This document shows positions 9,080 through 38,954 of a DNA stretch of 64,000 nt, in pieces. The translations under genes were made by a program, and so were the position numbers. Source of the DNA: Deltaproteobacteria bacterium (GTDB taxonomy: Bacteria; UBA10199; JACPAL01; GCA-016699445); assembly GCA_016699445.1 (NCBI GenBank), contig CP064976.1:2478162-2542161 (forward strand), read 5' to 3'. Under the pieces are notes generated by a model. It saw only the letters and a program-made list of their open reading frames with translations, was not told the origin of the DNA and ran no database searches. Numbering within the stretch: position 1 is the stretch's first letter; each line of letters begins with the position of its first letter.

Positions 9080-9091
9080 AAAGGAGTTTTT

Positions 9092-20435: not shown

Positions 20436-20438
20436 ATC

Positions 20439-20513
20439 GTAGGGGCGCCATTCATGGCGCCCGATTAATTAAGGCGTGATAATAAATCAGGGCGTGATAA
20501 ATCACGCCCCTAC
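20439..20513. repeat. GTAG-family REP doublet (REPIN-like) between thiG and thiH
   Basis: Left arm GTAGGGGCGCCATTCATGGCGCCC, spacer, right arm GGGCGTGATAAATCACGCCCCTAC; the right arm is identical to 38379-38402. Confidence 0.9.
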
Positions 20514-21289
20514 GGCCTAATCATTCCTTCCAATGCGCTTGAGGCCTGGGCGGTCATTTTTTCTTCAGATCGTCCCGCCAAAAATCCACGGCGCCCCGCA
20601 ATTACCGCATGTTTAAACGCTCCTGCCATGCTGACAGGATCTTGAGCTGTGGCAATAGCGGTATTGACCAACACCGCATCGGCTCCCATTTCCATGGCTT
20701 CACAGGCATGAGAGGGTACGCCGAGTCCGGCATCGATCACGATGGGGACATTGGATTGCTCAATAATTATCCTCAACGTCTCTCGCAGTTGAAGGCCACG
20801 ATTGGAGCCAATCGGTGACGCCATCGGCATGACGACAGGACAGCCGACATCTTCTAAGCGTTTGGCCAAAGTTGGATCGGCCTGAATGTAGGGGAAAATG
20901 GCAAAGCCTTCTTGAGTGAGTGTGCGTGCGGCTTCTAGTGTCTCCAAAGGATCTGGCATGAGGTAACGTGGATCAGGAATCACTTCGAGCTTCACCCAAT
21001 CTCCAAGTCCCGCTTCACGCGCCAGACGTGCTAAGAAAATAGCTTCTTTGGCTGTGCGCGCTCCGGAAGTATTGGGTAATAGGGTAAAACGTTTACGATC
21101 AATAAAATGAAGAATATCTTCATCTGGTTTTTTAAAATCAACCCGACGTAGAGCCACAGTGACAAGACTGGCATCACTGGCTTCCAAGGCTTCTTTCATG
21201 ACTTGATGAGAAGAAAATTTTCCAGTGCCGACAAAAAGGCGAGAAGTGATTTCTTTTCCGCCTCCGCCAATGATGAATGAGTTTGTCAT
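20510..21289 (-). CDS. thiG: Thiazole synthase ThiG
   Basis: SRLFVGTGKF, LLPNTSGA, WVKLEV, VMPMASPIGS and DAVLVNTAIA motifs; the stop TAG lies inside the REP element. Confidence 0.96.
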   Translation of the reverse strand: MTNSFIIGGGGKEITSRLFVGTGKFSSHQVMKEALEASDASLVTVALRRVDFKKPDEDILHFIDRKRFTLLPNTSGARTAKEAIFLARLAREAGLGDWVKLEVIPDPRYLMPDPLETLEAARTLTQEGFAIFPYIQADPTLAKRLEDVGCPVVMPMASPIGSNRGLQLRETLRIIIEQSNVPIVIDAGLGVPSHACEAMEMGADAVLVNTAIATAQDPVSMAGAFKHAVIAGRRGFLAGRSEEKMTAQASSALEGMIRP

Positions 21290-21290
21290 A

Positions 21291-21494
21291 TTAACCCCCT
21301 CCAACTGCACGGATGAGTTCGATGACGTCATTGTGCCGGATTGTGTGTGTTTCAAACTGTGAATGGGAAATAATTTCCGCATTGATGGCAATCGCCAGAG
21401 CTTTGTTTTCTATTTTGAGCTGTGAAAGTAGGGTGGAAAGAGAAATTTCCGAATCAAAAGTCTGAATCTGTCCATTGACAGTAATCGTAATCAT
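21291..21494 (-). CDS. thiS: Sulfur carrier ThiS
   Basis: 67 aa, ITVNGQ start, C-terminal VGGG. Confidence 0.93.
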   Translation of the reverse strand: MITITVNGQIQTFDSEISLSTLLSQLKIENKALAIAINAEIISHSQFETHTIRHNDVIELIRAVGGG

Positions 21495-21582
21495 GTTTCC
21501 CTCCGCCCGCATTATCGGGATCAGGTTTTAAGGGTTTCTCTGTCTCAACAGAGATCTCAGCTGACCATCAGCACCCCTGATT
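21495..21582 (-). ncRNA. TPP riboswitch
   Basis: Minus strand reads AGGGGTGC...GCTGAGA...ACCCTT AAAACCTGATCCCGATAATGCGGGCGGAGGGA, the canonical TPP aptamer core, directly upstream of thiS. Confidence 0.95.
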
Positions 21583-21583
21583 T

Positions 21584-22177
21584 TTAGTGAGTCTTTATTC
21601 CATTAATAGACTGCAGTTCGATAATAGCTTCGTCATGCTGTTGTACTTTATGTGCAACATAATCCATTTTCTCATTAAGCTCAGAAATTCCCTGTGTGTT
21701 TTGATCAACTTTAAGACTTAATGAAGCAATATCACCTTTAAGTTCAGTCCTAAGATCCTGCATATCACCTTTAAGTTCAGTCCTAAGATCCTGCATATCA
21801 CCTTTAAGTTCAGTTCTAAGATCCTGAATATCACCTTTAAGTTCGGTTCTAAGATCCTGAATATCACCTTTGAGTTCGGTTCTAAGATCCTGAATATCAC
21901 CTTTAAGTTCGGTTCTGAACGTTTCAATTTTGTCTACAAGTGATCTTCTTGTAAAATCTAATTCGTCTCTAATATCTTTGATATCGAGTTTGATGGTTTG
22001 AATCTCTTCTTTCATGCTTGCTTGAAATCCAAGCAAACCTTCAGCAACAGCTCTAAACTCACTTTTCAGATCCTCAACCAAAACTGCAGTGTAATGGGAA
22101 ACTGATTCTGACTTATTGGAAATATCAGAAACTTTTTTGGTGCTTTTAAGGGCTTTTTTAGACGTGCTTTTTTTCAT
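21584..22177 (-). CDS. Coiled-coil protein with 11-aa (hendecad) repeats; resembles DUF1640/BDR-type proteins
   Basis: Likely start MKKSTSKK at 22177; basic N-terminus, then VLVEDLKSEFRAVAEG, then TELKGD(I/M)QDLR repeats. Confidence 0.7.
   Translation of the reverse strand: MKKSTSKKALKSTKKVSDISNKSESVSHYTAVLVEDLKSEFRAVAEGLLGFQASMKEEIQTIKLDIKDIRDELDFTRRSLVDKIETFRTELKGDIQDLRTELKGDIQDLRTELKGDIQDLRTELKGDMQDLRTELKGDMQDLRTELKGDIASLSLKVDQNTQGISELNEKMDYVAHKVQQHDEAIIELQSINGIKTH
21729..21916 (-). repeat. 5.7 tandem copies of a 33-bp unit (coding VNTR)
   Basis: Plus-strand unit ATATCACCTTT(A/G)AGTTC(A/G)GT(C/T)CTAAGATCCTG(C/A) starting at 21729, 21762, 21795, 21828, 21861 and 21894 (partial); no spacers. 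Confidence 0.95.
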
Positions 22178-22267
22178 CGCGAAGGGCGAACTTACAGAAC
22201 GAAAAAGAAAAAGCAAAGCCTTTGAAGTCCTGCATGAAATATTCTTAAAATTATCAATCTGAAAAAA

Positions 22268-22294
22268 TTATCGGAATGATAAGTCCGTTTTTTC
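22268..22294 (-). promoter_or_regulatory. Candidate sigma-28-like promoter for the coiled-coil gene
   Basis: Minus strand GAAA-N15-TCCGATAA (7/8 match to GCCGATAA). Confidence 0.3.
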
Positions 22295-22417
22295 CCAAAA
22301 AAAATTATAAGAAGTGTAACAAGAGTCACTTGTCACTGGCATGAGAAGTGCTTGAGTGATAAGCTTTGGGAAAATTTTCACCTATGAGGGGTATTATCTG
22401 CATTTTTAAGAGGGATT

Positions 22418-25400
22418 ATGAAGAAAATAAAATCTGTATTAATTGTTATCGTAATAAGTCTGATTCTTTCATCACGAGTCATGGCGGTGTCGAATAATCC
22501 GATGCAGTCAGCTGACTCAGCTCCAGTGCCTTACGGAACAGTTTATGCGACAGCTATAGATGCAACGGGTAGAACCTATATTGGTGGTAATTTTTCACAT
22601 GTGGGATCTTATACGGGTAACGGCATCATTGCGGATGCTTCAACAGGTGCTTTGGCGTCAGTATATCCAAAAGTAAATGGACCTGTCATGGCTGCTGCTT
22701 CTGATGGAGCGGGAGGGTGGTATATTGGTGGTGCCTTTACCCGAGTGGGAGATGTCTCGAGGACACGGTTAGCTCACATACTCAGTGATGGATCTGTGGA
22801 TCCTGATTGGACTCCTGCTGCCAGTGCTTCGGTTAATTCCATTGTAGTCAGTGGTACAGGTGCCAGTGCAATTATTTATTTAGGTGGAGATTTTGTTACA
22901 GTCACCCCTCAGGGATCAACCACGCCCTCTACAACCAATCGTATTGCAGCTCTTACAAGTACTGGTAGTCTTCTGAGTGGATTTACTTATCCTTGTAATA
23001 TCAACGATACTGTCAAAACGTTATTTCTCCAAGGATCTACGCTTTATGTTGGTGGAAAATTTTCTAATGTCAGCTGTTCATCGACGACGTTTAATAGGAT
23101 TATTTCTTTTAATGCGACTAGTGGATCTGTGATAACAAGTTTTGCTCCTAATTTAGAAGCTGAGGTTAATGATATCGTTTCCGACGGAACCTATGTTTAT
23201 GTAGCGGGGCTTTTTGCTAGTAAATTGGCTCGTTTCAATCCTGCTACCGGTATTGTTGATAGTGCATGGATACCAGCACCTGATCAACCACCTACGTCTC
23301 TGGCTCTTAGTGGAGGGAATCTTTATGTGGGTGGATTTTTTAATCGTATTGGTGGTCAGTCCCGTACATGTCTGGCTTCCCTCAGCACTTCCTCAGGTGC
23401 AGTGACTGTTTCTTCATGGGCTCCCTATCTTGGCAGTAGAAATGGCTCACTTAGTGTTTATAATATATCAATTTCGGGTACCCGTATTTTTGTTACAGGG
23501 AATTTTAGTGCAGCTAATTCTAGCGGTAGAAGCTATGTGGGCGCCTTGCTTCGTCACTCAGCAGCTTCTTTTGAACTGAGTGGAGGAGCTCTTACATCAT
23601 GGAATCCAAACTTGAGCAGCTTCACTAATCATTTTGCGCTCACTTCTGATGGTACTCATATTTATATGGGCGGTACTTTTAATTCAGCGGGGGCTGGATC
23701 ATCTCAAGCTCGAAGTGGTTTTGCTTTAATCAATTCTGATGGGAGTCTTGATGAGAGCTGTAAACCTTCTTTTACAGCTTCCCTTGATCTTTCAGTATAC
23801 GATATCGCCCTAGATGGAGCTTACATTTATGTGGGTGGTAGTTTTGACTCTGTGACTATTGGAAGTGTCACAACAAGTCGTCAGAAAATTGCCCGACTGA
23901 ATGCCTCTGATTGTAGTTTGGATGCGTGGTATCCAGGGAATCTCAATGATAGTGTGGAGTCGATCCTTGTGAGAGCCCCCTATGTTTATTTTTCGGGTTC
24001 ATTTTCTCGTGTTGGAACAGATTCAACATATGGTGGTGCTGCAAGAATGACGATTGCGGGTAGTTTAGATACAACTTGGAAACCTCTTTTTGAGAGTGGC
24101 TATGATGTAAAAACTATGAGTCTCTCTGAAGACGGTTCTCTTCTTTTTGCTGGAGGAAATTTTACTACAGTTAATAGTAGTGCTCAGCCAAACTTTGCGG
24201 TTATCGATTCGACTCCCACAAGTACTGGTGTCTTGTCTCCAGTGTGGATTGATGTTCCTAAACCTAATAATCTTGTATATTCCATCGTTCATGATGACAC
24301 TGAACTCTATATAGGGGGGGGCTTGACAGCGATAGGTGCAGGGCCTGCTCTTATAGCGCGTTCCTATCTTGCGGCCTACACTCTTTCTACGGCGAGCTTG
24401 GATACTGTATGGGTTCCTAGTCTGGTAGGTTCTCAAGTTTCTGATATGACATTATCCGCAGATGGAGATCGCCTCTTAGTTGTGGGACAATTTTCAGCTT
24501 TAGGAGGTGCTCCTCATTTCAATTTTGGAGCTATTTCTACAACAGATACAGGTACTGTAAAAAATTGGTCACCCAACTTTTCTGTAGCAATGGGAGGTTC
24601 TGTCGCTACCGATGGTAGTATTGTGACTTTAGGTGGGAATGGTATTTCGGATGTATCACGTTATTCTGCGAATGAATCTTTTGCCCGTTTTGCCATTCCT
24701 TCAGTCTCTTTTGCTTCAGCCGCATCATCAACACCAGAAAGTGCTTCAGCTCTTATCCCTTTGACACTTTCTGTAGCGGATCCGGATCCGATTACAGTCA
24801 GTTATATGATTGCCGATGGCACCACCACATCCGCTGATTATACGGCGAGTTCGTCGGTTGTTATTCCATCAGGGAGTACGACGGCAAATATCAATATTAG
24901 GATTAATGATGATTATTACTACGAGCCTTCAGAAACCATGACTTTAAGTTTTTCAGATGTAGGTGGGGCTGCTTTTGGCAGTATTTTAAGTCATACATTG
25001 ACAATAAATGATAACGACCCCCCTCCCACGATCTCTTTTAATATTACAGGTATGGAGAATTTTAATGAAAATGCTGGGGTGGTGGATATTAAAGTCAGAG
25101 CAAGCTCTGAGCCTCATCAAAATCCAATTACAGTTCTTTGTGAAACTACAACTTCCGGAACAGCTACGGTGGGATCAGATTTTCTCGCTACGTCTACGAC
25201 ACTGACGTTTACCTCTGACATAAACCTTCTAAACTGTTCTATTCCTATTATTGATGATACCCTTCAAGAAGGGAATGAAACGGTGAACCTTAGACTCTCA
25301 GGAGTCACTGGTGGAGCCAGTTTGGGGACAAGTGAGAAAACATTTATCATTAATGCCAATGACTCCCCTCAAGTCAGTAGGGGATCTGGTGGCTCAAGTG

Positions 25401-25579: not shown

Positions 25580-25660
25580 CCTGATCATCGTCATATTTTT
25601 TTCTCAAAATCGAAAAAAACGCGTGAAATTTTAAAAATACTATTGTAGGCACGCCGACCT

Positions 25661-26782
25661 ATGAAAAGAGTCTCCCCTACAGTTATCGAAGTCGATCTGG
25701 AAGCTATTCGACATAATTACAAACAATTACGCAAACGTTACCCAGCGTCCGCGAAGACATTATGTGTTGTAAAATCAAATGCTTATGGTCATGGAGCCGG
25801 TCGTGTGGCCAAGGTGCTGCAGGAAGAAGGGTCTGATTGGTTTGGGACCGGTACGGTGGATGAAGGGCTGGAATTGCGTGAGTCGGGAGTTAAAAAGCCC
25901 ATCCTCCTTTTGATGGGAATGATCGAAGGTCACCCCAGCTGTACACTACGCTACCAGCTGACTCCTGTTGTTTATGAAATTTCAGAAGCTGAAAAATTGC
26001 ATGAATTTTTAGCTCATTCGAAGCGTAAGCTGCCGATTCATATTAAAGTAGATACGGGAATGAGTCGGTTAGGTGTTTTGCCTCGTGAGTTTGGGGCTTT
26101 TTGTGATCGTTTGAAGCCTTTGAGTTCTTTGGATCCTGTGGGTTTGATGACTCATTTTTCTGATGTGGCCAATGCTGAATGGACCACCAAACAAACCAAA
26201 CTTTTTGATGCCGCCAAGACGATCTTTTTGGAAAAATTTCCTGGGCCCAAAGTTTTTCACATGGCCAATACGCAAGCAGCTATTGAGGGTAAAGTCGGGA
26301 TGGGAGATTCAGACTGGATGGTGCGTTTGGGAATTTCTCTTTATGGGGCTTATCCGCTTGAAAAAGATAAGAAGTTGGTGGACCTCCAGCCCGCTTTGAC
26401 TCTTAAGAGTAAAGTCATCAGTGTGAAGAAGATTCCAGCAAAAACTCCGGTGAGTTATCTGCGTTCTTATGTGACTAAAAAGGACAGTGTGATTGGGGTG
26501 ATTCCTGTGGGTTATGCTGATGGTTACCCTCGTTGTTTGTCCAATGAAGCTCATGTTTTGATCCGTGGTAAGAGAGTTCCTGTGATTGGGATTGTGACGA
26601 TGGATATGATCATGGTGGATTTGACCTCATTACCCAATGCTAAGGTTGGAGAAGAAGTGGTCTTGATTGGAACGCAAGCTAAAGAAGAAATTCGTGTGGA
26701 AGAAGTGGCGAAATGGGCTGATACGATTTCTTACGAAATCTTGAGTCGTCTTTCACCACGTATCCCACGTGTTTACATCTAA
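25661..26782 (+). CDS. alr: Alanine racemase
   Basis: VVKSNAYGHG PLP-lysine motif, HIKVDTGMSRLG, VGYADG, TISYEIL. Confidence 0.97.
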   Translation: MKRVSPTVIEVDLEAIRHNYKQLRKRYPASAKTLCVVKSNAYGHGAGRVAKVLQEEGSDWFGTGTVDEGLELRESGVKKPILLLMGMIEGHPSCTLRYQLTPVVYEISEAEKLHEFLAHSKRKLPIHIKVDTGMSRLGVLPREFGAFCDRLKPLSSLDPVGLMTHFSDVANAEWTTKQTKLFDAAKTIFLEKFPGPKVFHMANTQAAIEGKVGMGDSDWMVRLGISLYGAYPLEKDKKLVDLQPALTLKSKVISVKKIPAKTPVSYLRSYVTKKDSVIGVIPVGYADGYPRCLSNEAHVLIRGKRVPVIGIVTMDMIMVDLTSLPNAKVGEEVVLIGTQAKEEIRVEEVAKWADTISYEILSRLSPRIPRVYI

Positions 26783-27590: not shown

Positions 27591-27618
27591 TGATGGGCGC
27601 TTCTAAAAAATATGTGGG

Positions 27619-27705
27619 TGTCATCACGAGGAGGCCGAAGGCCGACGTGGTGATCTCATACAAACATTTGATTAGGGAGATCGCCACGCTACGCTCGCGA
27701 TGACA
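27619..27705. repeat. 87-bp branched palindromic element (family 2), intergenic copy
   Basis: Outer arms TGTCATCACGAG/CTCGCGATGACA, inner arms CGTGGTGATCTC/GAGATCGCCACG, small GGCC-GAA-GGCC hairpin; homologous to 58166-58255. Confidence 0.88.
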
Positions 27706-27709
27706 GACA

Positions 27710-28474: not shown

Positions 28475-29794
28475 ATTTCAAGTCGGACTCTTTGCCCTGA
28501 TTGCCATTCTTCTTATTGCGTACATGAGTTTTCGCGTGAGTGAAGGTGGGCTTTTTAAGGGAGGGGATTATCAAGTCAAAGTCTTGATCGATTCTGCTGA
28601 AGGTTTGACCAAAAAAACACCCGTAGAGATTGCGGGTATTCAAGTGGGCTACATTGATCATTTAGAGCTTCATGACGGCTCGCGAGCTTTGGCGATCTTA
28701 CGTGTGAATAAGCAAGTGCAGTTGGGACAAAATGCTAAAGCTCAAATTCGCACTAAAGGATTTTAGGTGAGACTTATGTGGATCTTTTGCCTGGAGATTT
28801 TTCAACGGGTTTGATTGGTCCTGGTGGAGAAATTCGTGCGACCAATCCTTATGTGGATTTAGGTCAAATAGCTTCTGATGTGCGTGAGGTTACTTCAGCG
28901 ATTAAAAAGATGATTGCCGATGATGGGCAAGGTCCGGTGACGCGTATTTTGAAAAACATGGAGACGTTTACCGAAAAGCTTTCTCAAATGACGGTTCAAA
29001 ATCAGCAAAACGTCAATGAGATCGTTGAAAATTTGAGACAATTTTCCGGCAATCTCAATGGTTTGATGGCGGAAAAACGTGAAACTTTAAGCGAAACGAT
29101 GGATCGGATTAATTCAGTGTCTCGAAAAATCGACGAGGGCCGCGGTACTGTTGGACGTTTGATTAATGATGGAGAACTGGCTCAAAATTTAAGCGAAACT
29201 TCGCGTGGATTAAACGATACTTTGGGTGGCATCAGTCGTTATCAAATCGAAATGGCTTACCATCTGGAATATCTTGGCCGTTCGAAAGATTATAAAAATT
29301 ATGCGGGCCTGATTTTTAAACCACGTCCGGATAAGTATTTTATGGCAGAAGTTATTGTGGATCCCGATCCGTCGCCGATTATTACACACCGCACGACAAC
29401 CATTACCACGGGAGGCTCGAGTACGACGGTTGAAGCTAATCAGTCTGCAGTTGAGCGCAATGCCTTTTTGTTTTCTATCCAAATGGCTAAACAGTTTTAT
29501 GATTTTACATTTCGTGGTGGTTTGATTGAATCTCGTGGTGGAGTCGGTATTGATTATGATTTAGGACCGGCTCAGGTTCAATTTTCTGCTTTTGATTTTG
29601 GCACTAAAGAAGGCCGCAAGCCTCATTTGAAAACCTTGGGTAAGCTTAATGTCACCAATAATTTTTTCCTCGTCGGTGGGTATGACGACTGGATAAATGT
29701 TGATCATGATCAAAGAAATTGGTTTATGGGCGCCGGTTTTCAATTGGTGGATAATGACATCAAGAGTTTGTTGGGGGCAGCAAGTTTTAGATAA
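28458..29794 (+). CDS. mlaD: Long MlaD/MCE protein (TM-MCE-helical-beta-rich C-terminus; apparent frameshift near 28763)
   Basis: FQVGLF TM anchor and MCE domain (GL...TPVEIAGIQVG.I) in ORF 28458-28766; GGA TTT [T]TA GGT GAG joins ORF 28778-29794. Confidence 0.88.
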
Positions 29795-31365
29795 TGGAGA
29801 ATAAAATGAAACGCGCTTTAATCAGTCTTTCCGATAAAACAGGCATCGTCCCTTTTGCCAAAGGTCTTCATGAGTTGGGAATTGAGATTTTATCAACAGG
29901 TGGAACCGCAAAACTTTTAAAAGAAAATCTCATTCCTGTTGTGGAAGTGGGGGATTACACAGGTCAGCCTGAAATTTTGGATGGTCGTTTAAAAACTCTT
30001 CACCCTAAAATTCATGGTGGCATTTTGGGTATGCGCTCCAATGTACAGCATGTGGAAGACATGAAAAAATCTCAGATTCAGCCCATCGATCTGATCGTGG
30101 TCAATCTTTATCCTTTTGAACAAACCATTGCTCAAGCCGGTGTGACTCTCGAACATGCGATTGAAAATATTGATATTGGTGGTCCGACAATGATTCGTGC
30201 AGCGGCTAAAAACTGGCAGGATGTGGCTGTCGTTGTGGATCATCAGGATTACGCGAAAATTTTAGAAGAATTACGTAGGGGCGATATTCATGACGCCCCA
30301 AACGTAACCAAAGAAACCAAATTTGAATTAGCAAAAAAAGTTTTTGTCCTGACCTCCCGTTATGATGGAGCGATTGCCAATTATTTAACAGGTGGAAAAG
30401 ACAATCAATTTCCCGAAACATTCAATTTTCAATTTCAAAAAGTTCAAGAGCTTCGCTATGGCGAAAACCCTCATCAGAAGGCTGCATTTTATAAAGATGG
30501 GGCCAGTGGTGTTTCGAGTGCTAAACAACTCCATGGTAAAGAACTCTCGTTTAATAATATTTTGGATCTGGATGCGGCGTTTGGATTGGTATTGGATTTT
30601 TCCGAAACTGCGTGCGTGATTGTGAAACATACCACGCCTTGTGGTGTGGCCGTAGGGGCGATTCATGAATCACCCCTACATGATATTTTTGTCGCGGCTC
30701 GTGATTGTGATCCCTTATCGGCTTTTGGTGGTATCATTGCTTTCAATCGTCCTGTCGATGTGGCCACAGCTCAGGAAATTTCAAAAGATTTTTATGAATG
30801 TGTGATTGCTCCATCGTTTGCGCCTGAGGCTTTTCAAATTATCGCTGGTAAGAAAAATATCCGTATCATGGAGTTGCCTTCTGCTATTTCTAAGAAACAA
30901 TTGGATCTCAAGAGAGTCTCTGGTGGTTTGTTGGTTCAGGAAAAAGATGAACAGATTGAAAATGTTCGTGAGTCTAAAGTGGTTTCTGCACGTCAGCCTT
31001 CTGATACCGAGTGGAATGTTCTGCAGTTTGCCTGGAAAGTGTGTCGTGGGGTGAAATCCAACGCCATTGTCTATGCCGGTGCTGAAGGAAATATTATTAA
31101 AACGTTGGGAATTGGTGGTGGTCAAGTGAGTCGTGTTGATGCGACCAAGATTGGTATTTCAAAAGCCCGCACATCTCTTAAAGGAGCTGTTATGGCTTCC
31201 GATGCCTTCTTTCCATTCCGCGATAATATTGACGAAGCGGCTAAAGCAGGGATTGCAGTTGTCGTCCAACCCGGTGGCTCGATGAGAGACGATGAGACGA
31301 TCCAAGCCGTCAATGAACATCAAATGGTCATGCTCTTTACGGGAGCTCGGCATTTTAGACATTAA
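29794..31365 (+). CDS. purH: Bifunctional AICAR transformylase/IMP cyclohydrolase
   Basis: RALISLSDKTG, GRLKTLHP, IDIGGPTMIRAAAKN, LRYGENPHQ and ASDAFFPFRD motifs (start may be 29806). Confidence 0.97.
   Translation: MENKMKRALISLSDKTGIVPFAKGLHELGIEILSTGGTAKLLKENLIPVVEVGDYTGQPEILDGRLKTLHPKIHGGILGMRSNVQHVEDMKKSQIQPIDLIVVNLYPFEQTIAQAGVTLEHAIENIDIGGPTMIRAAAKNWQDVAVVVDHQDYAKILEELRRGDIHDAPNVTKETKFELAKKVFVLTSRYDGAIANYLTGGKDNQFPETFNFQFQKVQELRYGENPHQKAAFYKDGASGVSSAKQLHGKELSFNNILDLDAAFGLVLDFSETACVIVKHTTPCGVAVGAIHESPLHDIFVAARDCDPLSAFGGIIAFNRPVDVATAQEISKDFYECVIAPSFAPEAFQIIAGKKNIRIMELPSAISKKQLDLKRVSGGLLVQEKDEQIENVRESKVVSARQPSDTEWNVLQFAWKVCRGVKSNAIVYAGAEGNIIKTLGIGGGQVSRVDATKIGISKARTSLKGAVMASDAFFPFRDNIDEAAKAGIAVVVQPGGSMRDDETIQAVNEHQMVMLFTGARHFRH
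30275..30303. repeat. Degenerate GTAG-REP inside purH (encodes RRGDIHDAPN)
   Basis: GTAGGGGCGATATTCATGACGCCCCAAAC; stem GGGGCG/CGCCCC retained, terminal CTAC eroded. Confidence 0.7.
30652..30679. repeat. GTAG-REP inside purH (encodes VGAIHESPL)
   Basis: GTAGGGGCGATTCATGAATCACCCCTAC; one mismatch from a perfect 28-bp palindrome. Confidence 0.9.
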
Positions 31366-31368
31366 AAT

Positions 31369-32478
31369 ATGAAAAAAAAAATAACAAAATCTCAGGTGAT
31401 TGATTCATTAAAACCACATCGTGAAGAGGTGGATGCGATTGATCAAAAGATTTTAAATCTATTAAATCAACGAGCACAGGTTGTATTAAAAATTGGAGAT
31501 CTGAAAAAACAATCCAGTCAGGAAGTTTTTGCTCCTGTGCGTGAGAAGAGTCTGATTGATAATCTCACACAAAAAAATCCAGGTCCTTTTCCCACGCATG
31601 CGTTAAGAGCGGTTTTTGGAGAAATCCTTTCAGCCTCACGTGTACTTCAATCCCCGATAAAAGTCGCTTATTTAGGCCCTGAAGCGACGTTTACGCACTT
31701 GGCCGCTTTGAAATCTTTTGGTCGATCCACCGAACTCATTCCAGAATCATCGATCTCAAAAGTTTTCGATGCTGTGGAGCATAAGCGCGCTCAGTTGGGT
31801 GTTGTGCCGATTGAAAATTCCACTGAGGGAGTTGTGGGAGCCACTTTGGATTGTTTTTTGGATTCTCCTTTGAAGATCACGAGCGAGACGACGTTACCTA
31901 TCAGTCATCATCTTTTGTCGCGTGCTAAAAACATTAAGAATATTCAGCGCATTTATTCTCATGTGCAGGCATTGTCCCAATGTCGCTCATGGCTTGAGCG
32001 CAATCTTCCACATATTCCTTTGATTGAGGCGGACAGTACAGCTCGTGCTGCTGAAAAAGCGGCGGGAGATCCTCATGCCGCGGGGATTGCTGGCGAACAT
32101 GCCGCTGAGATTTATGGACTCAATGTTTTGAAGAAAAATATTGAAGATAATTCCAACAACATGACCCGATTTTTGATTATCTCTCAGTTAAAGTCAGGTC
32201 AGGGGACGCGCACAGGCAGTGACAAAACTTCGATTTTATTTTCAGTCAAAGATCAGGTGGGTGTGCTTTATAAAATGCTCAAACCTTTTTATGAAAAGAA
32301 AATTAATCTGACCAAGATCGAATCACGCCCTCTTAAAAAGAAAGCGTGGGAGTATATTTTCTTCATCGATATGGATGGTCATATTGAAGATAAAAAAATT
32401 GCGGAAGCTATTCGCGAGCTTGAAAAACAGTGTTTGTTTTTAAAAGTGTTGGGTTCCTACCCGAAAGCGACCGTTTAA
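31369..32478 (+). CDS. pheA: Chorismate mutase/prephenate dehydratase (P-protein)
   Basis: IDAIDQKILNLLNQR CM domain; YLGPEATFT, VPIENSTEG, NMTRF and ACT-domain NLTKIESRP. Confidence 0.96.
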   Translation: MKKKITKSQVIDSLKPHREEVDAIDQKILNLLNQRAQVVLKIGDLKKQSSQEVFAPVREKSLIDNLTQKNPGPFPTHALRAVFGEILSASRVLQSPIKVAYLGPEATFTHLAALKSFGRSTELIPESSISKVFDAVEHKRAQLGVVPIENSTEGVVGATLDCFLDSPLKITSETTLPISHHLLSRAKNIKNIQRIYSHVQALSQCRSWLERNLPHIPLIEADSTARAAEKAAGDPHAAGIAGEHAAEIYGLNVLKKNIEDNSNNMTRFLIISQLKSGQGTRTGSDKTSILFSVKDQVGVLYKMLKPFYEKKINLTKIESRPLKKKAWEYIFFIDMDGHIEDKKIAEAIRELEKQCLFLKVLGSYPKATV

Positions 32479-33314
32479 TGTTTAATAAAACAGTTATTAT
32501 CGGTGTGGGTTTATTAGGTTCATCGATCGGGATGAATCTGATTTCAAAAAAATTGTCCCAAGAAGTCATTGGTGTGGGTCGTGATATTCGAAATTTGAAA
32601 ACCGCCCAACGTCGAAAGGCGATCCATCGATATTTAAATGTAGGGGCAATTCATGAATTGCCCCTACGGGATTTGACCTACAACGATCTCGTTATTTTGG
32701 CAGCGCCTGTGTCTGCGATTAAAAATTACCTTAAAGAAATTCCAAACGATGTTTTGATCACGGATGTGGGGAGTGTCAAAGAGTCGATTCTCAAAGAAGC
32801 AGAACGTTTAAAGAAACGATTTGTAGGATCTCATCCGATTAGTGGTACTGAAAAAACAGGGGCTCAATCAGGGGATGTGGACTTGTTTCAAGACCGCTCA
32901 TGTATTGTCACACCTTCGAAATATTCAAAATCTTCCGATGTGGCCAAGATTAAAAAACTCTGGGCTCAGTTGGGAAGTCGGGTATCTGTGATGTCTGCTT
33001 CCGAGCATGATCGTCTCTTTGCCTACACGAGTCATCTGCCTCATGCTGTAGCCTATTCATTGATCCAATCGACTATTTTAAAAACGTCACAGAAACATTT
33101 TGTTTTTAGTAGTTTTCGGGATGCTACGCGTGTGGCGGCAAGCTCGCCTGAGATGTGGCGTGATATTTTTCTGGAAAATTCTGGGGAAATCACCCATGCG
33201 ATCGCGGCTTTTCAAAAACAATTGGATCATCTGATATCTTTGATGAAGAAAAAAGATACAACCTCTCTCATGAAATTTTTAAAAAAGGGACAGGAGATAC
33301 GACAAAAGCTATGA
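32478..33314 (+). CDS. tyrA: Prephenate dehydrogenase
   Basis: GVGLLGSS Rossmann motif, TDVGSVK, FVGSHPISGTE, HD...AYTSHLPH, TRVAASSPEMW. Confidence 0.93.
   Translation: MFNKTVIIGVGLLGSSIGMNLISKKLSQEVIGVGRDIRNLKTAQRRKAIHRYLNVGAIHELPLRDLTYNDLVILAAPVSAIKNYLKEIPNDVLITDVGSVKESILKEAERLKKRFVGSHPISGTEKTGAQSGDVDLFQDRSCIVTPSKYSKSSDVAKIKKLWAQLGSRVSVMSASEHDRLFAYTSHLPHAVAYSLIQSTILKTSQKHFVFSSFRDATRVAASSPEMWRDIFLENSGEITHAIAAFQKQLDHLISLMKKKDTTSLMKFLKKGQEIRQKL
32640..32667. repeat. Perfect 28-bp GTAG-REP palindrome inside tyrA (encodes VGAIHELPL)
   Basis: GTAGGGGCAATTCATGAATTGCCCCTAC is its own reverse complement. Confidence 0.93.
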
Positions 33315-34629
33315 AATCTTATACCGTCACACCGACAACAAAAGTATTGCGAGGCATTATTGAAGTGGCTGGGGACAAGTCTATTTCACATCGGGCATTG
33401 ATTTTTGGTGCTTTAGCGACAGGATCCACCACGATTCAAAACATGCTCGAAGGTGAGGATGTTTTGTGTACGGCTGAAATTTTAAAAAATTTAGGTGTCA
33501 CAGTCGTTAAAATCAAAAACTCCTGGAAGGTTGTCAGTCCTGGGCTTGAAGGTTTTCAGCCTTTTAAAGGTGTTCATTATTGTGGAAATTCGGGCACGAC
33601 ACTTCGCTTGATGACAGGCTTTTTTTCAGGACTTCCTTTTTCTTCAACTCTGACGGGAGATGCCTCTCTCAATAAACGTCCTATGGGCCGTGTGATTGAG
33701 CCTCTGACCAGTTTGGGTGCCAAAATCACAGAGGATAAAAATGAGAAGGGGAGATTCATCACGGTGACAGGCGGTCATCTTCACAAGGGAAATTTTTCTC
33801 TGAAAATTCCTTCAGCACAGCTTAAGACAGCGCTTCTCTTGGCAGGCTTGACAGGGAATGTGGATATCAAAGTCAAAGAGCCTCTTAAGAGTCGAGATCA
33901 TAGTGAACGAATGTTGAAAGCTTTTGGAGCTAAAATCAAAGTGAAGGGGTTGGAAGTTTTACTTGCGAGCAACTCAAAGCTCAAAGCTCAAAAACTGATT
34001 GTGCCGGGTGATATTTCTTCAGCAGCATTTTTTATTGTGGCGGCTCTCATCAATCGTCAGGAAAAGACGACTCTGACTTTGGAAAATATTGGGATCAATC
34101 CGACCCGTGTGGGTATTTTGGAAGTTTTGAAGAAAATGGGAGCTAAAATTCAGCTGAAGAATAAGCGGTTGGTTTGTGGTGAGCCTGTGGCGGACTTGGT
34201 GGTGAAGCCATCCAAACTCAAAGGTGTGACTGTTTCTCAAAAGCTCATTCCAAGCTTGATTGATGAGATTCCCATTATCAGTGTGGCAGCTTCTGTCGCT
34301 AAAGGCGTGACTAAAATCCGTGGTGCTGAAGAATTGCGCGTGAAAGAAACCGATCGTATCAAAGCTTTGATCAACGAACTTCCCAAGTTTGGAGTTAAAG
34401 TGAAGGAATATCCAGATGGTTTGGATATTATCGGATTGGGAGATTCTCAGCCGACGGGAAGTCCTGAGGTCGTTAGCTACGGCGATCACCGGATTGCCAT
34501 GTCGATGGCCGTCTTGGCCAGCATTTCGCAAAACCCTTCTAAAATCCAAAACACCGAATGCGTCGCGACATCCTTCCCCAATTTCCGCGATCTGATGGAA
34601 AAGTGGGACTTTCGATTCGGGAAATTTAA
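33311..34629 (+). CDS. aroA: EPSP synthase (apparent frameshift near 34600)
   Basis: GDKSISHRA, GNSGTTLR, LNKRPM, RDHSERM, LRVKETDRI, DHRIAM. One extra A in the A4 run at 34599-34602 gives the C-terminus FRDLMEKVGLSIREI* ending at 34629. Confidence 0.93.
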
Positions 34630-35042
34630 TGTAAATTTTTGTATGGAAGAGCTTGTTGAATCAGATTTGATTTGATGGGTTCAAATTCGGGATCTTTGTG
34701 TATTAAAACGGCTTTCTTCTGAATAGCGAGGGCTGCGACAAAAGCGTCTCCCAATGAAATCGAAAAATGACTTTTAAGATCTCCAGCCGTCAAGGTTTGC
34801 TCTTCATCGGATTCGATGCGCTTGATAGGAAGACATTTCATTTGGACGAGGGTTTCTAAAGCGCGATTCTGTCCCAATCGTTGTGAAGTAATGTAATAAA
34901 CTTCAGTCCATGTAATAAAACTGGTGTAGACGTGAGCCTTTTTCCTTTTTGCTAAAAGCAATATCTCTTCGACAACATCACTTCCGGATTCATTTAATTG
35001 AAATGTCAAAAGAGCGGATGTGTCTAAAACATAAGACTTCAT
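34626..35042 (-). CDS. vapC: PIN-domain toxin (VapC)
   Basis: VLDTSALL...TEVYY...SLGDAFVAALA...HKDPEF carries the four acidic PIN residues. Confidence 0.9.
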   Translation of the reverse strand: MKSYVLDTSALLTFQLNESGSDVVEEILLLAKRKKAHVYTSFITWTEVYYITSQRLGQNRALETLVQMKCLPIKRIESDEEQTLTAGDLKSHFSISLGDAFVAALAIQKKAVLIHKDPEFEPIKSNLIQQALPYKNLH

Positions 35043-35290
35043 TTTTTTTCCTTCTCGCGAGACCGTTCTTTTTGACGTTCTTTCATTAACTCATCAAAGA
35101 GGTTGGGACCTTTTCCTTCAGTATTCAAAGAACCACGAAAAGATTGAATAGGGTCAGCTGGAATAGGGTAGAGGTAGATACCTCTCTCTGTCACTACCCA
35201 TTCCATTCCCATTCCAGCTTTTAGATTAAGTTTTTTACGAACATCCGAAGGGATGGAAATTTGTCCCCGTTCCGTAATCACTGTTTGCAT
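35039..35290 (-). CDS. vapB: AbrB/MazE/SpoVT-family antitoxin (VapB)
   Basis: VITERGQISIPSDVRKKLNL AbrB motif; ATGA-type overlap with vapC. Confidence 0.9.
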   Translation of the reverse strand: MQTVITERGQISIPSDVRKKLNLKAGMGMEWVVTERGIYLYPIPADPIQSFRGSLNTEGKGPNLFDELMKERQKERSREKEKK

Positions 35291-35304
35291 GATAAATATT
35301 CCTT

Positions 35305-35341
35305 ATACATGATATCTATATTACTTTATCATGTATGTCAA
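35305..35341 (-). promoter_or_regulatory. vapBC promoter/operator
   Basis: Perfect 10-bp inverted repeat ATACATGATA (35305-14) / TATCATGTAT (35327-36) with 12-bp spacer, abutting TTGACA on the minus strand (35336-41). Confidence 0.7.
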
Positions 35342-35380
35342 TGAGTGTGAGTGTGAAGTAAATCTGTAAATAATTTAATC

Positions 35381-35456
35381 CCCTCCGGGGACAAGCGGAG
35401 GCGGGTCTAATTTCCATCGGCTTGCCGAGCCTTTGAGTCCAGGGCTTGCCCTGGGG
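35381..35456. repeat. Cluster of three short GC hairpins
   Basis: CCTCCG-gggacaag-CGGAGG, TCGGC-tt-GCCGA and CCAGGGC-tt-GCCCTGG. Confidence 0.6.
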
Positions 35457-35558
35457 TTTCATACCGGTGATAAACAAGTTTTCATCCAGTGCTTGACAAG
35501 AAATGAAAATCCTTTAGAGAGCCCCGCCAATGCCTGCACACAAGAAAAAACTGAACAC

Positions 35559-35591
35559 AAACCCTCCGTCACAAGCGGAGGGTTTTTTTTT
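35559..35591 (+). terminator. Intrinsic terminator/attenuator at the 5' end of pyrB
   Basis: AAACCCTCCG-tcacaag-CGGAGGGTTT stem whose 3' arm runs into a T9 tract (35583-91). Confidence 0.7.
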
Positions 35592-36546
35592 GGCTCTGAA
35601 AGAAAAATTTACGGGGAAACTTCCCAAAGACTGTTTGGAGATTAAATCTCTCTCTCGGAATCAAATTGAGACGATTCTAGATCTGGCTCAGGAGTTTAAA
35701 GAGAAGGAAGCTCGAGGCCAGAAAAAGCATGAAGATCTCAAAGGCAAAGCCCTGATTAATATTTTCTTCGAGCCTTCTACACGCACACGCACTTCTTTTG
35801 AGCTCGCGGGCCGTAGGCTCTCAGCTGATATGATGACCATTGCACCTCAAGCCTCCAGCCTCTCTAAAGGTGAGAGCTTGAAGGATATGATTGAAAATCT
35901 TGAAGCTATGGGGCCGGATTTGATGGTGGTTCGTCATGCAGCCAGTGGAGCTCCTGGTTTGATAGCTTCGTATACAAAAGCGGCAGTGGTGAACGCAGGT
36001 GATGGTTCTCACGAACATCCCACTCAAGCCCTCTTGGATGCTTTTACTGTTAAAGAAAAGTTGGGAGAGATTCAGGGTAAGCATCTGGTGATTGTGGGAG
36101 ATATTTCTTATAGCCGTGTGGCCAGGTCCAATATTTATGCGTTTTGCAAATTAGGTGGCAAAGTGACGTGTGTGGGTCCTGCGACGTTGATTCCTCCAGG
36201 TATCGAAAAGATGGGGGCTAAGGTTGAGACTGATCTTGATAAAATTTTGCCTCATGCCGACGCTGTGATGTTTCTTCGGATTCAGAAAGAACGTCAGGAA
36301 AAAATGAATTTTCCGTCCATTGCTGAATACACACGCTTTTATGGAATGAATCGAACCAGATGGGCTGCTTTGAAAAAAGAAGCTCTCATTATGCATCCTG
36401 GTCCTATCAATCGAGGTGTTGAGATTGAGCCTGAGATTGCCGATGGTCGCTTAGAAGGTGGGGCCCAAACAGTGATTTTGGATCAGGTAAAAAATGGCAC
36501 CGCTGTCCGTATGGCGGTTCTCTCCTTGTGGGGGCGATCAAAATGA
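35590..36546 (+). CDS. pyrB: Aspartate carbamoyltransferase catalytic subunit
   Basis: FFEPSTRTRTSF, NAGDGSHEHPTQALLD, GDISYSRVARSN, MHPGPINRGVEI. Start is uncertain: TTG 35590 (GGAGG 8 nt upstream) or ATG 35530. Confidence 0.95.
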   Translation: MALKEKFTGKLPKDCLEIKSLSRNQIETILDLAQEFKEKEARGQKKHEDLKGKALINIFFEPSTRTRTSFELAGRRLSADMMTIAPQASSLSKGESLKDMIENLEAMGPDLMVVRHAASGAPGLIASYTKAAVVNAGDGSHEHPTQALLDAFTVKEKLGEIQGKHLVIVGDISYSRVARSNIYAFCKLGGKVTCVGPATLIPPGIEKMGAKVETDLDKILPHADAVMFLRIQKERQEKMNFPSIAEYTRFYGMNRTRWAALKKEALIMHPGPINRGVEIEPEIADGRLEGGAQTVILDQVKNGTAVRMAVLSLWGRSK

Positions 36547-37823
36547 AAATGCTCATTAAAAATGGTCATGTTGTAGACCCTGTAGCGAAAAAAGATGGCT
36601 TGTTTGATCTTTTGATCGAAGATGGAAAAATTAAAAAGTGGGAGAAAAGACTACGTGTGGACACTGTCGATACGATCATCGATGCCAAAGGATTGGTAGT
36701 GACTCCAGGATTGATTGATCTTCATACTCATCTTCGTGAACCGGGTTATGAATATAAAGAAACCATCAAAACCGGAAGTATGGCTGCAGCGGCGGGTGGG
36801 TTTACGACGATTGTCTGCATGGCTAATACAAATCCTGTAAACGATAATGCGGTCATCACCGAGTTTATTACTAAGCGTGCTCAAGAAGAGGCGATTGTGA
36901 ATGTCTTGCCCATTGGAGCCATTTCGAAAAATCTCGAAGGGAAAGCGATGGCGGATATTGGTCAGATGGCCGAAGCGGGTATTGTGGGTATTTCCGATGA
37001 TGGTCGCTGTGTGATGGATACAGCACTCATGAGAAAATCCATGCAGTATGCGAGAGGTTTTGGATTGATGGTTGTCTCGCATGCAGAAGATGAATGTTTG
37101 TCGGGCCATGGTTCGATGAATGAAGGCCCTGTAGCTACTGAGCTAGGATTGTCAGGCTCGCCCAATGCCGCTGAAGAGTTGATTGTCGCTCGTGATATTG
37201 CCTTAGCTGAATTAACCAAAGCCAAGTTGCATATTGCTCACATGTCATCTCGAGGAAGCTTGGAATTGGTAAAAGCTGCTAAGAAGCGTGGTGTCTCAGT
37301 GACCTGCGAAGTGACACCTCATCATCTATTTCTCACAGATGAAGCTGTGCGTGGTTATAATACCAATGCTTCAGTGCGACCTCCATTGCGTTCACGTGAA
37401 GATGCTCTGGCTCTGAGACGCGGGATTGAAGATGGGTTTGTCGATACTATTGCGACCGATCACGCCCCTCATGCGTCTTTTGAAAAAGAAGTCGAATTTG
37501 CCCAAGCGGCTCATGGGATGGTGGGATTGGAAACGTCTTTAGCTCTTTGTCTCAAGCTTGTTCAGGATCGCTCAATCAAGCTTTCACAATTGATCAAGCT
37601 GATGTCAGCAAATCCAGCTCATATCTTAGGTTTGAAATCGAAGGGTACTCTTAAGCCGGGCGCCGATGCAGATATTGCTATCTTTGATCCAAACGAAAAA
37701 TGGAATGTCGACCCGACAAAATTTTATTCCAAAAGTCGCAATACACCTTTTGGAGGATGGAGTCTGAAGGGTAAAATTAAATACACTGTCGTGAATGGGA
37801 AAATTGTTTATGAAAACATCTAA
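36543..37823 (+). CDS. pyrC: Dihydroorotase (class I)
   Basis: DLHTHLREPG, AAAAGGFTTIVCMANT, EVTPHHL, IATDHAPH, SKSRNTPF. Confidence 0.96.
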   Translation: MKMLIKNGHVVDPVAKKDGLFDLLIEDGKIKKWEKRLRVDTVDTIIDAKGLVVTPGLIDLHTHLREPGYEYKETIKTGSMAAAAGGFTTIVCMANTNPVNDNAVITEFITKRAQEEAIVNVLPIGAISKNLEGKAMADIGQMAEAGIVGISDDGRCVMDTALMRKSMQYARGFGLMVVSHAEDECLSGHGSMNEGPVATELGLSGSPNAAEELIVARDIALAELTKAKLHIAHMSSRGSLELVKAAKKRGVSVTCEVTPHHLFLTDEAVRGYNTNASVRPPLRSREDALALRRGIEDGFVDTIATDHAPHASFEKEVEFAQAAHGMVGLETSLALCLKLVQDRSIKLSQLIKLMSANPAHILGLKSKGTLKPGADADIAIFDPNEKWNVDPTKFYSKSRNTPFGGWSLKGKIKYTVVNGKIVYENI

Positions 37824-38954
37824 GTGTTTATTGGTCTTAGAAGACGGAAGCGTCTTTGAAGGAAAATCCTTTGGATATGTCGGTGAATCCATCGGCGAAA
37901 TTGTCTTTAATACCAGCATGACAGGATATCAGGAAATTCTTACCGATCCTTCGTATAAAGGCCAGATGGTTGTGATGACGTATCCTGAAATTGGAAATTA
38001 CGGAATCAATCTTGAAGATATCGAATCTCGAAAACTTTTTTTAGAAGGGTTTATTGTCAGACAATACAATCCGATGCCGTCTAATTTTCGATCGACTCAA
38101 ACTCTGGATCAATACCTGAAAAAAAATAAAGTCGTCGGAATCGAAGGTGTGGATACGCGAGCTCTTACACGCCATCTGCGCGATCATGGTTCGAAGATGG
38201 GAATTATCTCTAATGTCGATGGGGATGTGAAACGCCTTTTGAAAAAGTAAAAGCTGCACCCAAGATGGTGGGACGTGATTTGGCCAAGGAAGTGACTTGT
38301 GAAAAGCCTTATCATTGGACGGAAAAATTGTGGGAATTGGACGTAGGGGCGCAATTAATTGCGCCCAGGCAAGATGCAGGGCGTGATAAATCACGCCCCT
38401 ACAAAGTAGTCGCCTATGATTTTGGAATCAAATACAACATTCTTCGAGGTTTGGTGAGTGCCGGTTGTGATGTGACGGTTGTACCTGCAATGACTTCAGC
38501 ATCAGATGTTTTAGCCATGAATCCAGACGGCATTTTTCTTTCCAATGGTCCGGGTGATCCTGAGCCTGTGACGTACGCTATTGAAAATATTCAAAAGCTG
38601 TTGGGGAAAAAACCACTTTTTGGAATTTGCCTAGGCCATCAACTTCTAGGACTGGCTTTGGGTGGAAAGACGTACAAGTTAAAATTTGGTCATCATGGGG
38701 GCAATCAACCTGTGATGGATATGAGTACACGAAAAGTCGAAATCACCTCTCAAAATCACAATTTTGCTGTGGATACCGACTCGCTGAAAGGTTTGGCTGA
38801 ACTTTCTCATGTGAATCTCAATGACAAGACTGTTGAAGGAATGAGTGTGATTGGGAAGCCTGCGTTTTCAGTTCAATACCATCCGGAAGCCTCACCGGGT
38901 CCGCATGATTCTCAGTATTTATTTAATCGATTTGTGGAAATGATGAAGGGTTAG
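37810..38954 (+). CDS. carA: Carbamoyl-phosphate synthase small subunit (apparent frameshift near 38245)
   Basis: [48 protein letters not shown]; one extra A in the A5 run joins the two ORFs. Confidence 0.95.
38343..38402. repeat. 60-bp GTAG-REP doublet inside carA (20 codons, [20 protein letters not shown])
   Basis: Left arm GTAGGGGCGCAATTAATTGCGCCC, 12-bp spacer, right arm GGGCGTGATAAATCACGCCCCTAC. Confidence 0.93.

Follow-up and report, generated by a model that had tools for sequence, protein, structure and literature searches.

Among the palindromes that bacteria translate in frame are the Rickettsia palindromic elements (RPEs), which were reportedly described by Ogata et al. in 2000. 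RPE-1 is ~100-150 bp in length and is restricted to Rickettsia and, to our knowledge, RPEs have no partner among the tyrosine transposases (RAYTs) that are associated with repetitive extragenic palindromes (REPs). Here we describe five short palindromes in a 64,000-nt stretch of a genome assembled as Deltaproteobacteria bacterium (GCA_016699445.1, contig CP064976.1, forward-strand positions 2,478,162 to 2,542,161; hereafter "the window", meaning the whole stretch), four of which lie within the reading frames of purH, tyrA, and carA and one at the junction of thiG and thiH. Like RPEs, they are selfish palindromes read in frame in essential proteins, at surface-exposed positions that are compatible with function. 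Unlike RPEs, they are 25-75 nt in length, GTAG-tagged, and RAYT-linked, and they do not belong to the RPE families; the likeness is functional only, being that of in-frame palindromes.

Closer relatives are found among the intragenic REPs of the GTAG and CGTC types, which Di Nocera, De Gregorio and Rocco (2013; BMC Genomics 14:522; PMC3733652) reported in several species. Intragenic REP dimers in that catalogue encode 20-30 aa, Opitutus terrae is the richest species, some copies lie at the ends of open reading frames (ORFs), and some genes were struck at about the same site in related species. RPE-4 and RPE-6 of Rickettsia are themselves CGTC-type REPs, and an extragenic location is a tendency of REPs and not a strict criterion (PMC3733652). 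Since intragenic GTAG REPs had already been described, the preliminary description of the window, in which in-frame repeats were held to be best known from Rickettsia, overrated the novelty of the case. With the GTAG REPs of O. terrae, Pseudomonas putida (GTAG-1), and Stenotrophomonas (SMAG), the window elements share a 5' GTAG, a short G+C-rich stem-loop, occurrence as singles and head-to-head dimers, dimers that code for protein, overlap with ORF ends, association with RAYTs, and recurrence at the same site. The hosts differ, being core biosynthetic enzymes (PurH, TyrA, and CarA) here and mainly DNA repair genes there. In further contrast, four of the five copies here are genic, the net gain in length falls short of the element's length, orthologues of as little as 46% identity have the same loops occupied, and the repeat is common to several phyla.

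Two other systems invite comparison. In the described pairings of RAYTs with REPINs, i.e., REP doublets that form hairpins (Bertels and Rainey 2011, PMC3116915; Nunvar et al. 2010, PMC2817692; Corneloup et al. 2021, PMC8266576), two inverted REPs fold as one long hairpin and GTAG serves as the guide tetranucleotide through which RAYTs choose the CT or CA dinucleotides that they cleave (PMC8266576); the window elements have the same architecture. Whereas the REPINs described so far lie outside genes, are specific to their lineages, and are regarded as vertically inherited, the 28-mer treated below is identical across contigs of 35-65% G+C and in the RayT genes of several phyla, and it stands in frame inside many of those RayT genes. 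Bacterial MITEs (miniature inverted-repeat transposable elements) that are read in frame are likewise small, non-autonomous, and able to add peptide segments to proteins; they possess terminal inverted repeats and target-site duplications and derive from DDE insertion sequences (PMC10969869). Neither target-site duplications nor flanking direct repeats were found at any of the five junctions in the window, which sets the elements apart from MITEs. Less familiar than any of these traits are the replacement of loop codons, the deep recurrence at fixed codon positions in core enzymes, the identity of the repeat across phyla, and the in-frame copies in RayT genes.

Five GTAG Palindromes in 18 kb

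The motif GTAGGGGC occurs eight times on the two strands of the window, against 0.49 matches expected, and none of 100 shuffles reached eight. The palindrome family originally noticed is thus real, and the eight matches pair up into five elements in exact agreement with the number and positions originally given (Table 1). Fuzzy searches recovered no further copy in the other 46 kb of the window, and the chance that five random points would all fall within 18 of 64 kb is ~0.024. GC skew is positive across the whole window; hence, no replication-strand switch is available to explain the clustering.

Three of the elements are single hairpins of 25-28 nt (two in purH and one in tyrA), and two are inverted doublets of 60 nt (carA) and 75 nt (thiG/thiH junction). 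All eight units begin with GTAGGGG[CT], and stems of at least 9 nt are present among the elements. In the 28-nt forms, GTAG and CTAC are part of the stem of a single hairpin, and the 25-nt copy at purH site 1 ends in GCCCCAAAC instead of GCCCCTAC, having lost its 3' CTAC. The carA doublet is built from a left REP (GTAGGGGCGCAATTAATTGCGCCC), a 12-nt spacer, and a right REP that is the same in both doublets. As RNA, each doublet is predicted to form one long hairpin (-40.7 kcal/mol, z -7.6, for thiG/thiH and -37 kcal/mol, z -7.1, for carA), and in both minimum free energy folds the left REP pairs with the right REP. Two inverted REPs with a short spacer and a common long hairpin, the arrangement by which REPINs are recognized, are therefore found at 20439-20513 and 38343-38402. 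Single units of 24-28 nt fold at -11.8 to -20 kcal/mol (z -3.3 to -5.2), with the tyrA 28-mer at -20 kcal/mol. The elements have a G+C content of 50-60%, as opposed to 41.6% for the window.

Taken together, the elements show the hallmarks of GTAG-type REPs, i.e., a short, G+C-rich, imperfect palindrome, a stem-loop, and a 5' GTAG on each unit, and they are very probably GTAG REPs and REPINs. That assignment, first made from the window alone, is upheld by the 5' GTAG palindromes, by the folding of the doublets, and by an interspersed, RAYT-linked family in other genomes. Terminators were considered and rejected, as there is no T-run and the elements lie inside ORFs, and CRISPR (clustered regularly interspaced short palindromic repeat) arrays were rejected on account of irregular spacing. 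No RNA family in Rfam matched the elements; the sole match in the window was a thiamine pyrophosphate riboswitch (RF00059, 72.6 bits) upstream of thiG, at 21481-21588 on the minus strand.

Table 1. Palindromic elements of the window, their host genes, and a second palindromic family in PurH orthologues.
Feature	Position	Strand	Details
thiH	19588-20451	-	NCBIfam/Pfam
REPIN-like doublet, 75 nt	20439-20513	.	two hairpins; between thiG and thiH, both on the minus strand
Left REP of 75-nt doublet	20439-20462		GTAGGGGCGCCATTCATGGCGCCC
Degenerate partial copy in 75-nt doublet	~20472-20489		
Right REP of 75-nt doublet	20490-20513		GGGCGTGATAAATCACGCCCCTAC
thiG	20510-21391	-	NCBIfam/Pfam
purH	29794-31365	+	523 aa; host of two elements; NCBIfam PurH, E=1.6e-217
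Degenerate single REP, purH site 1	30275-30299	+	25 nt; GTAGGGGCGATATTCATGACGCCCC
REP, purH site 2	30652-30679	+	28 nt; GTAGGGGCGATTCATGAATCACCCCTAC; one stem mismatch (ACCCCTAC)
tyrA (prephenate dehydrogenase)	32430-33314	+	host; likely start near 32478 (278 aa)
Perfect 28-nt palindrome, tyrA	32640-32667	+	GTAGGGGCAATTCATGAATTGCCCCTAC
carA	37795-38954	+	host; as assembled, two pieces (37795-38250 and 38265-38954)
REPIN-like doublet, 60 nt, carA interdomain linker	38343-38402	+	two hairpins
Second palindromic family, PurH proteins	site 2 and ~residue 431		P0005, P0014, P0017, P0018, P0024, P0025, P0032
Second palindromic family, DNA copies	L251 ~6880-6915; L252 ~3140-3175		

Translation and Location in the Host Enzymes

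The assignments of purH, tyrA, carA, thiG, and thiH are backed by both NCBIfam and Pfam, and these, together with the translations, bear out the genes and reading frames originally proposed. The element at purH site 1 is translated as RRGDIHDAP (CGT AGG GGC ...), that at site 2 as VGAIHESPL, beginning 8 residues past the invariant K278-H279, and that in tyrA as VGAIHELPL; the carA doublet is read in frame as a 20-residue peptide. At the thiG/thiH junction, the thiG stop codon is the TAG of the right-hand GTAG (20512-20510, minus strand), and the thiH ORF as assembled begins at an ATG in the loop of the left REP (20451-20449), the native ATG being at 20435-20433. The claim that all three frames of the repeat are used was correct as to the frames themselves, but it is uninformative, because the third frame necessarily reads TAG and only two can be read through. 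Alignments show PurH and TyrA to be full length and to keep all family-invariant residues, including K278-H279 of PurH, so that both enzymes appear intact with the elements presumably read as part of them.

AlphaFold2 models built on 48-67 homologues (mean predicted local distance difference test scores, or pLDDT, of 93.5 for TyrA and 91.5 for PurH) place the segments in loops. In TyrA, residues 55-63 lie between the Rossmann-fold strands 51-54 and 71-74, with a pLDDT of 81-88. Site 1 of PurH falls in the loop that joins helices 150-165 and 173-198, with a local pLDDT as low as 74, and site 2 follows on the end of strand 281-288 and leads to helix 295-305, at a pLDDT of 94. The CarA doublet, in turn, replaces a variable interdomain loop corresponding to residues ~177-190 of E. 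coli CarA. The idea that the inserts form peptide loops, put forward before any models were made, is thus in keeping with the modelled PurH and TyrA and with the interdomain loop of CarA.

One-base lesions are present in carA, carB, and thiH. In carA, an A5 run (~38236-38241) that lies 90 nt upstream of the element is one base short and breaks the frame, carB is broken by a like deficit in an A5 run at ~39501-39506, and the addition of one A to the A5 run restores the reading frame in either gene; the 5' end of thiH is frameshifted at ~20396 (minus strand), where it has one base fewer than the closest available genome, in which carA (379 aa) and carB (1067 aa) are intact. These frameshifts are probably consensus errors of long-read sequencing that are unrelated to the repeats; otherwise, there would be three pseudogenes in core pathways.

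The Repeat Family and Its RAYT Partner

Elsewhere, the family is large. The pattern GTAGGGGCGNNATTNATNNCGCCC, which fits five of the eight units of the window, was found in at least 120 genome contigs and in more than 20 phylum-level groups among the matches listed, often as inverted doublets of 28-110 nt; the titles of the contigs include Chloroflexota, Acidobacteriota, Omnitrophota, Armatimonadota, Gallionella, Binatia, Bacteroidota, Firmicutes, Patescibacteria, and others. The exact 28-mer (with a G/C variant) occurs in at least 120 metagenome contigs of 35-65% G+C. Among the matches listed, only 27 of 160 units lie in long ORFs, versus 71% of random positions, and the same is true of 11 of 107 28-mers versus 54% of random positions. 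The extragenic tendency of GTAG REPs is not observed in the window, where four of five copies are inside ORFs; against the family baseline, the probability of four or more genic copies in five is 0.0005-0.004, a figure to be read with the understanding that the window was chosen after the fact. In-frame copies of the 28-mer do occur in unrelated contigs, for example, in genes for an FGGY kinase, a short-chain dehydrogenase, and an RluA-type pseudouridine synthase. A literature search for the repeat-derived peptide returned no match.

The flanking bases were originally taken to indicate a fixed pyrimidine-purine target. Within the window, the pattern stands, with a 5' pyrimidine in five of five elements and a 3' purine in four of four. 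Across the family, it is only a bias of 66-88%, as a pyrimidine precedes GTAG in 140 of 160 units and 85 of 121 28-mers, and a purine follows CTAC in 80 of 121 28-mers (among the matches listed).

A link between the repeat and RAYTs is seen in other genomes. In contig L055, two REP doublets of the GTAG family flank a frameshifted Y1 transposase gene (PF01797). Contig L130 possesses a RayT gene (8718-9408, minus strand) with one 28-mer just upstream and a second in frame inside, ~10 residues past the HuH motif and preceded by four partial tandem copies (NVGAVQ/NVGAIQ). Both contigs recall the REPtron, in which REPs flank a single Y1 HuH gene of the PF01797/COG1943 type, and L228 is another contig with GTAG REPs flanking or inside a RayT gene. 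Among the 120 best RayT homologues (P0242-P0361), 85 carry VGAIHE[LS]PL past the HuH motif, a fraction that is biased upward because the query held the peptide. Some of these homologues show slipped duplications (VGAIHELPLHELPL, VGAIHVGAIHELPL), and RayT ORF calls often begin inside the upstream REP (MNCPY...). Several bear the name "REP element-mobilizing transposase RayT", and the named sources among the best 120 are Calditrichaeota, Bacteroidota, Brocadiales, Spirochaetota, KSB1, and Planctomycetota. To judge from these gene arrangements, the RAYT link of the family is established outside the window's genome. That the 28-mer is identical in such different genomes is best ascribed to a conserved master sequence linked with the RayT gene, rather than to vertical conservation in tyrA.

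Comparison with the Closest Genome

The closest available genome, GCA_964555055.1 (the "sister" genome), has a PurH that is 86-88% identical, local synteny with the window, and ~80% identity at the DNA level. Of the five elements, it lacks the two in purH and those in carA and at thiG/thiH, and it retains a decayed hairpin at the tyrA site. Since four of the five elements are missing from the sister genome, those in purH, carA, and thiG/thiH are derived relative to it. The expectation that relatives would display empty sites thus held for both purH sites and for carA; it failed at tyrA, where there is the hairpin in the sister gene and where blocks resembling VGA....PL occur in more than 10 orthologues.

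The lengths do not fit simple insertion, as had been supposed. At purH site 1, the sister protein is 6 codons shorter, giving a net gain of +18 nt for a 25-nt element, and at site 2, where the sister reads IGASDL, the gain is +9 nt for 28 nt. The carA segment comprises 21 residues in the window and 12 in the sister (+27 nt for a 60-nt doublet), and at tyrA the change is 0 for a 28-nt element. Every genic site has therefore gained less than the length of its element, and 10-33 nt of resident loop codons are gone, so that these codons were replaced and not merely displaced. A 28-nt unit as such cannot enter a gene in frame. At purH site 2, the ends of the REP show weak microhomology to the DNA of the native loop (~5/9 and 4/9 bases). 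The thiG and thiH genes of the sister genome overlap (ATGA) and are without an element there, the window being ~92 nt longer at this junction.

Recurrence at the Same Loops in Orthologues

The tyrA loop is occupied in distant orthologues as well. Contig L125 (61% GC), whose TyrA is 46% identical, has exactly the same perfect 28-mer in this loop, with the register shifted by three codons. Decayed 28-nt variants are found in tyrA of L126 and L127, and the remnant hairpin of the sister gene has the same length as the window element. Nitrospira-type outgroups are ~6 residues shorter at the loop; the nearest named TyrA matches are of this type, at ~41-43% identity, together with one from a metagenome-assembled genome labelled "Deltaproteobacteria bacterium". 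Register at this site differs between the window, the orthologues of the P0132 type, and L125. In a further TyrA orthologue, P0147, residues ~52-70 (VGAIHPKRGHYRGELPL) resemble a 28-mer REP split in the loop by another short insertion, which, if so, looks like a nested event inside an intragenic REP.

At purH site 1, the codon junction EE[LM]-CGT-AGG-GGC recurs exactly in contig L249 (68% identical), where it is occupied by a GTAG..CTAC doublet of 46 nt that differs from the window element. The gene of L252 has native length there and reads CGT AGG GGG GAT ATT (2686-2700), which is the left half of the window element; this half-copy may be a scar left by excision, or else a GTAG half-site that was there beforehand and attracts REPs. 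RRG without an insert is found in P0005 and P0018. Some insert is present at purH site 2 in 19 of 67 orthologues, most of the clade having a short native form. The sequence VGASPL in P0011 was considered as a REP scar and rejected, as its codons (GTGGGGGCTTCGCCGCTG) are not REP-like. Other PurH loops are struck as well. L250 and L251 each have a perfect 28-mer of another variant, at residues 114 and 378, respectively, and L252 has a 58-nt doublet close to residue 236. When the 67 PurH sequences are ordered by neighbour joining, inserts are patchy over six loops and confined to the window's clade, with none in the more distant half. Two of these six loops also house, in frame, a palindromic repeat of a second, unrelated family without GTAG, CCCTCTCCC...GGGAGAGGG, which is translated as (S)PSPxxGEG (Table 1). 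The high density of GTAG elements that had been proposed for this lineage is supported indirectly, from orthologues.

Origin of the Elements

On balance, it is likely that GTAG REP and REPIN copies, the non-autonomous partners of RayT/RAYT, persist in permissive loops of enzymes. The copies would be short, G+C-rich hairpins, single or as inverted doublets, that depend on a Y1 HuH single-strand transposase, and they would reach their sites in the form of single-stranded hairpins, by way of RAYT cleavage and strand transfer. Only those events that keep the frame and roughly the length of the loop would survive, which would leave resident codons replaced, and the persisting copies of this genome and of the uncultivated clade to which it belongs would occupy a few structurally permissive loops or linkers of housekeeping enzymes, where they may be translated as 9-21 aa; one copy would have settled between the formerly overlapping thiG and thiH. 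It is possible that a structural filter is at work, with few loops tolerating 9-20 extra residues, and this is supported because an unrelated second repeat family uses the same loops. Such a filter and turnover at old, occupied sites are not mutually exclusive, and turnover finds support because of the decay series, the half-copies, the identical junctions, and the zero net change at tyrA. With somewhat less assurance than for the explanation as a whole, we lean towards a division in which the tyrA and purH site 1 copies would be refreshed versions of older occupied sites, by re-insertion or conversion, and those at purH site 2, carA, and thiG/thiH would be newer arrivals, the latter being favoured because the sister genome has no trace of them. 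The elements are most likely near-neutral passengers and not adaptations, neutrality being assumed.

Several points weigh against this explanation. All five copies seen in this genome come from 64 kb of a 2.75-Mb contig. No RAYT gene was found by tblastn in the window, as first reported, or in ~150 kb of related loci, and none of the best 120 RayT homologues is tied to the source genome. A clean empty/filled pair at high identity and a target-site duplication are both wanting. With the nearest genome at ~80% DNA identity, the exact junctions are approximate and the replacement mechanism is deduced. RAYT cleavage and strand transfer have been carried out in vitro (PMC8266576), and insertion has not been directly demonstrated for any REP. 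Finally, the recurrent occupancy of the same loops could reflect function.

A different history, which we regard as possible but rather improbable, is that all five sites were colonized once, deep in the clade, and were then overwritten by the active REP variant, so that all five copies are refreshed. This would proceed by RAYT-catalysed REP-for-REP exchange or by gene conversion, with excision leaving re-usable GTAGGGG scars. The equal length and decayed hairpin of the sister tyrA speak for it, as does the graded decay of VGA....PL in more than 10 orthologues. So do the identical 5' junction of purH site 1 in the window, L249, and L252 (a doublet in one and a left half at native length in the other), the RRG without insert in P0005 and P0018, and net gains below element length at every site. 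It is hard to reconcile with the lack of any hairpin trace in the sister genome at purH site 2, carA, and thiG/thiH, with the short native form of purH site 2 in most of the clade, and with the differing registers at tyrA, and no precedent in biochemical work came to light for an exchange of one REP for another in vivo. More speculative still, and in our estimation doubtful, is the extension of this history to a general one, in which loops of core enzymes in compact genomes would be long-lived landing pads and refuges, an old or scarred copy being exchanged for the current master REP by RAYT cleavage and strand transfer or by conversion, and the master 28-mer would reside in frame within the RayT gene, just past the HuH motif, transposase and repeat moving between phyla as one unit. 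Exchange of this kind would account for net-zero or small changes in length, identical codon junctions in orthologues of 46-70% identity, and GTAGGGG half-copies, and joint movement of transposase and repeat would account for an identical 28-mer in genomes of 35-65% GC.

It is also conceivable, though quite improbable, that the hairpins have been co-opted. They would then be kept for a role in the mRNA (ribosome pausing at domain boundaries, or RNase protection or entry) or for the binding of a protein to DNA, the peptide loops being a by-product. The hairpins are indeed very stable (-16 to -41 kcal/mol), carA and purH site 1 are struck at or near domain linkers, the same loops are filled in many lineages, and a perfect 28-mer is shared by two very distant tyrA genes. 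Against such a role, the elements are patchy among close relatives, many orthologous copies are decayed, and most members of the family elsewhere are extragenic; a conserved, RAYT-linked master copy accounts for the identity of the 28-mer, and the second, unrelated repeat family in the same loops points to structural tolerance. A regulatory role for the mRNA hairpins, as was once suggested for this locus, is possible and receives no support here, as four of the five are missing from the nearest genome.

There is very little to recommend the view that the segments are chimeras or mistakes introduced when error-prone long reads were assembled or polished: at least three one-base homopolymer frameshifts (carA, carB, and thiH) do suggest an unpolished consensus, but all four genic copies are in frame, equivalent in-frame REPs occupy the same loops in the independent assemblies L125, L249, L250, L251, and L252, which come from different samples and sources, and the sequences are those of a family that has matches in hundreds of unrelated contigs. 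Equally remote is the notion that VGA...PL and RRG...AP are ordinary conserved residues with coincidental palindromy, for which the native [IV]-G-A-S-x-L of PurH site 2 and the non-REP codons of VGASPL in P0011 might be cited, since the segments are missing from outgroup orthologues, are encoded by perfectly or almost perfectly palindromic DNA that is identical to a repeat dispersed over unrelated genes and intergenic DNA, and have a G+C content foreign to the genome.

Neighbouring Features

Inverted termini of the form GTAGG...CCCCTAC, 22 nt apart, surround the start codon of alr (ATG 25661) at 25645-25680. They are kept in the sister genome (GTAGGGGCAGCCGCCTATGAAACGAGTCTCCCCTAC; L001 5952-5987), their interior is not palindromic, and they may represent an old, decayed REP that now carries a translation start. 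A separate ORF for thiS, a gene present in relatives, is not evident near thiG in the window. Between aroA and pyrB, a pair consisting of a VapC (PIN) toxin and an AbrB-type antitoxin is encoded at 34626-35290 on the minus strand, and a similar pair, of the PIN/MazE-antitoxin type, occupies the same place in the sister genome.

Implications

If GTAG REPs do persist in permissive loops as favoured here, then RAYT-type REPs, usually held to be extragenic and lineage-bound, can persist in essential enzymes of an uncultivated lineage, in one case 8 residues from the catalytic Lys-His of PurH. There are practical consequences as well. The peptides VGAIHELPL and VGAIHESPL are repeat-derived and will seed spurious homology among unrelated proteins, and gene callers start ORFs in REP loops, as with thiH here and the N-terminal extensions of RayT genes elsewhere. 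Such maps of occupied loops also reveal sites in PurH, TyrA, and CarA that tolerate insertion. Finally, if turnover at old, occupied sites is true, it would give RAYT cleavage and strand transfer a testable role in vivo, and the strictly vertical inheritance of REPIN-RAYT systems would be called into question.

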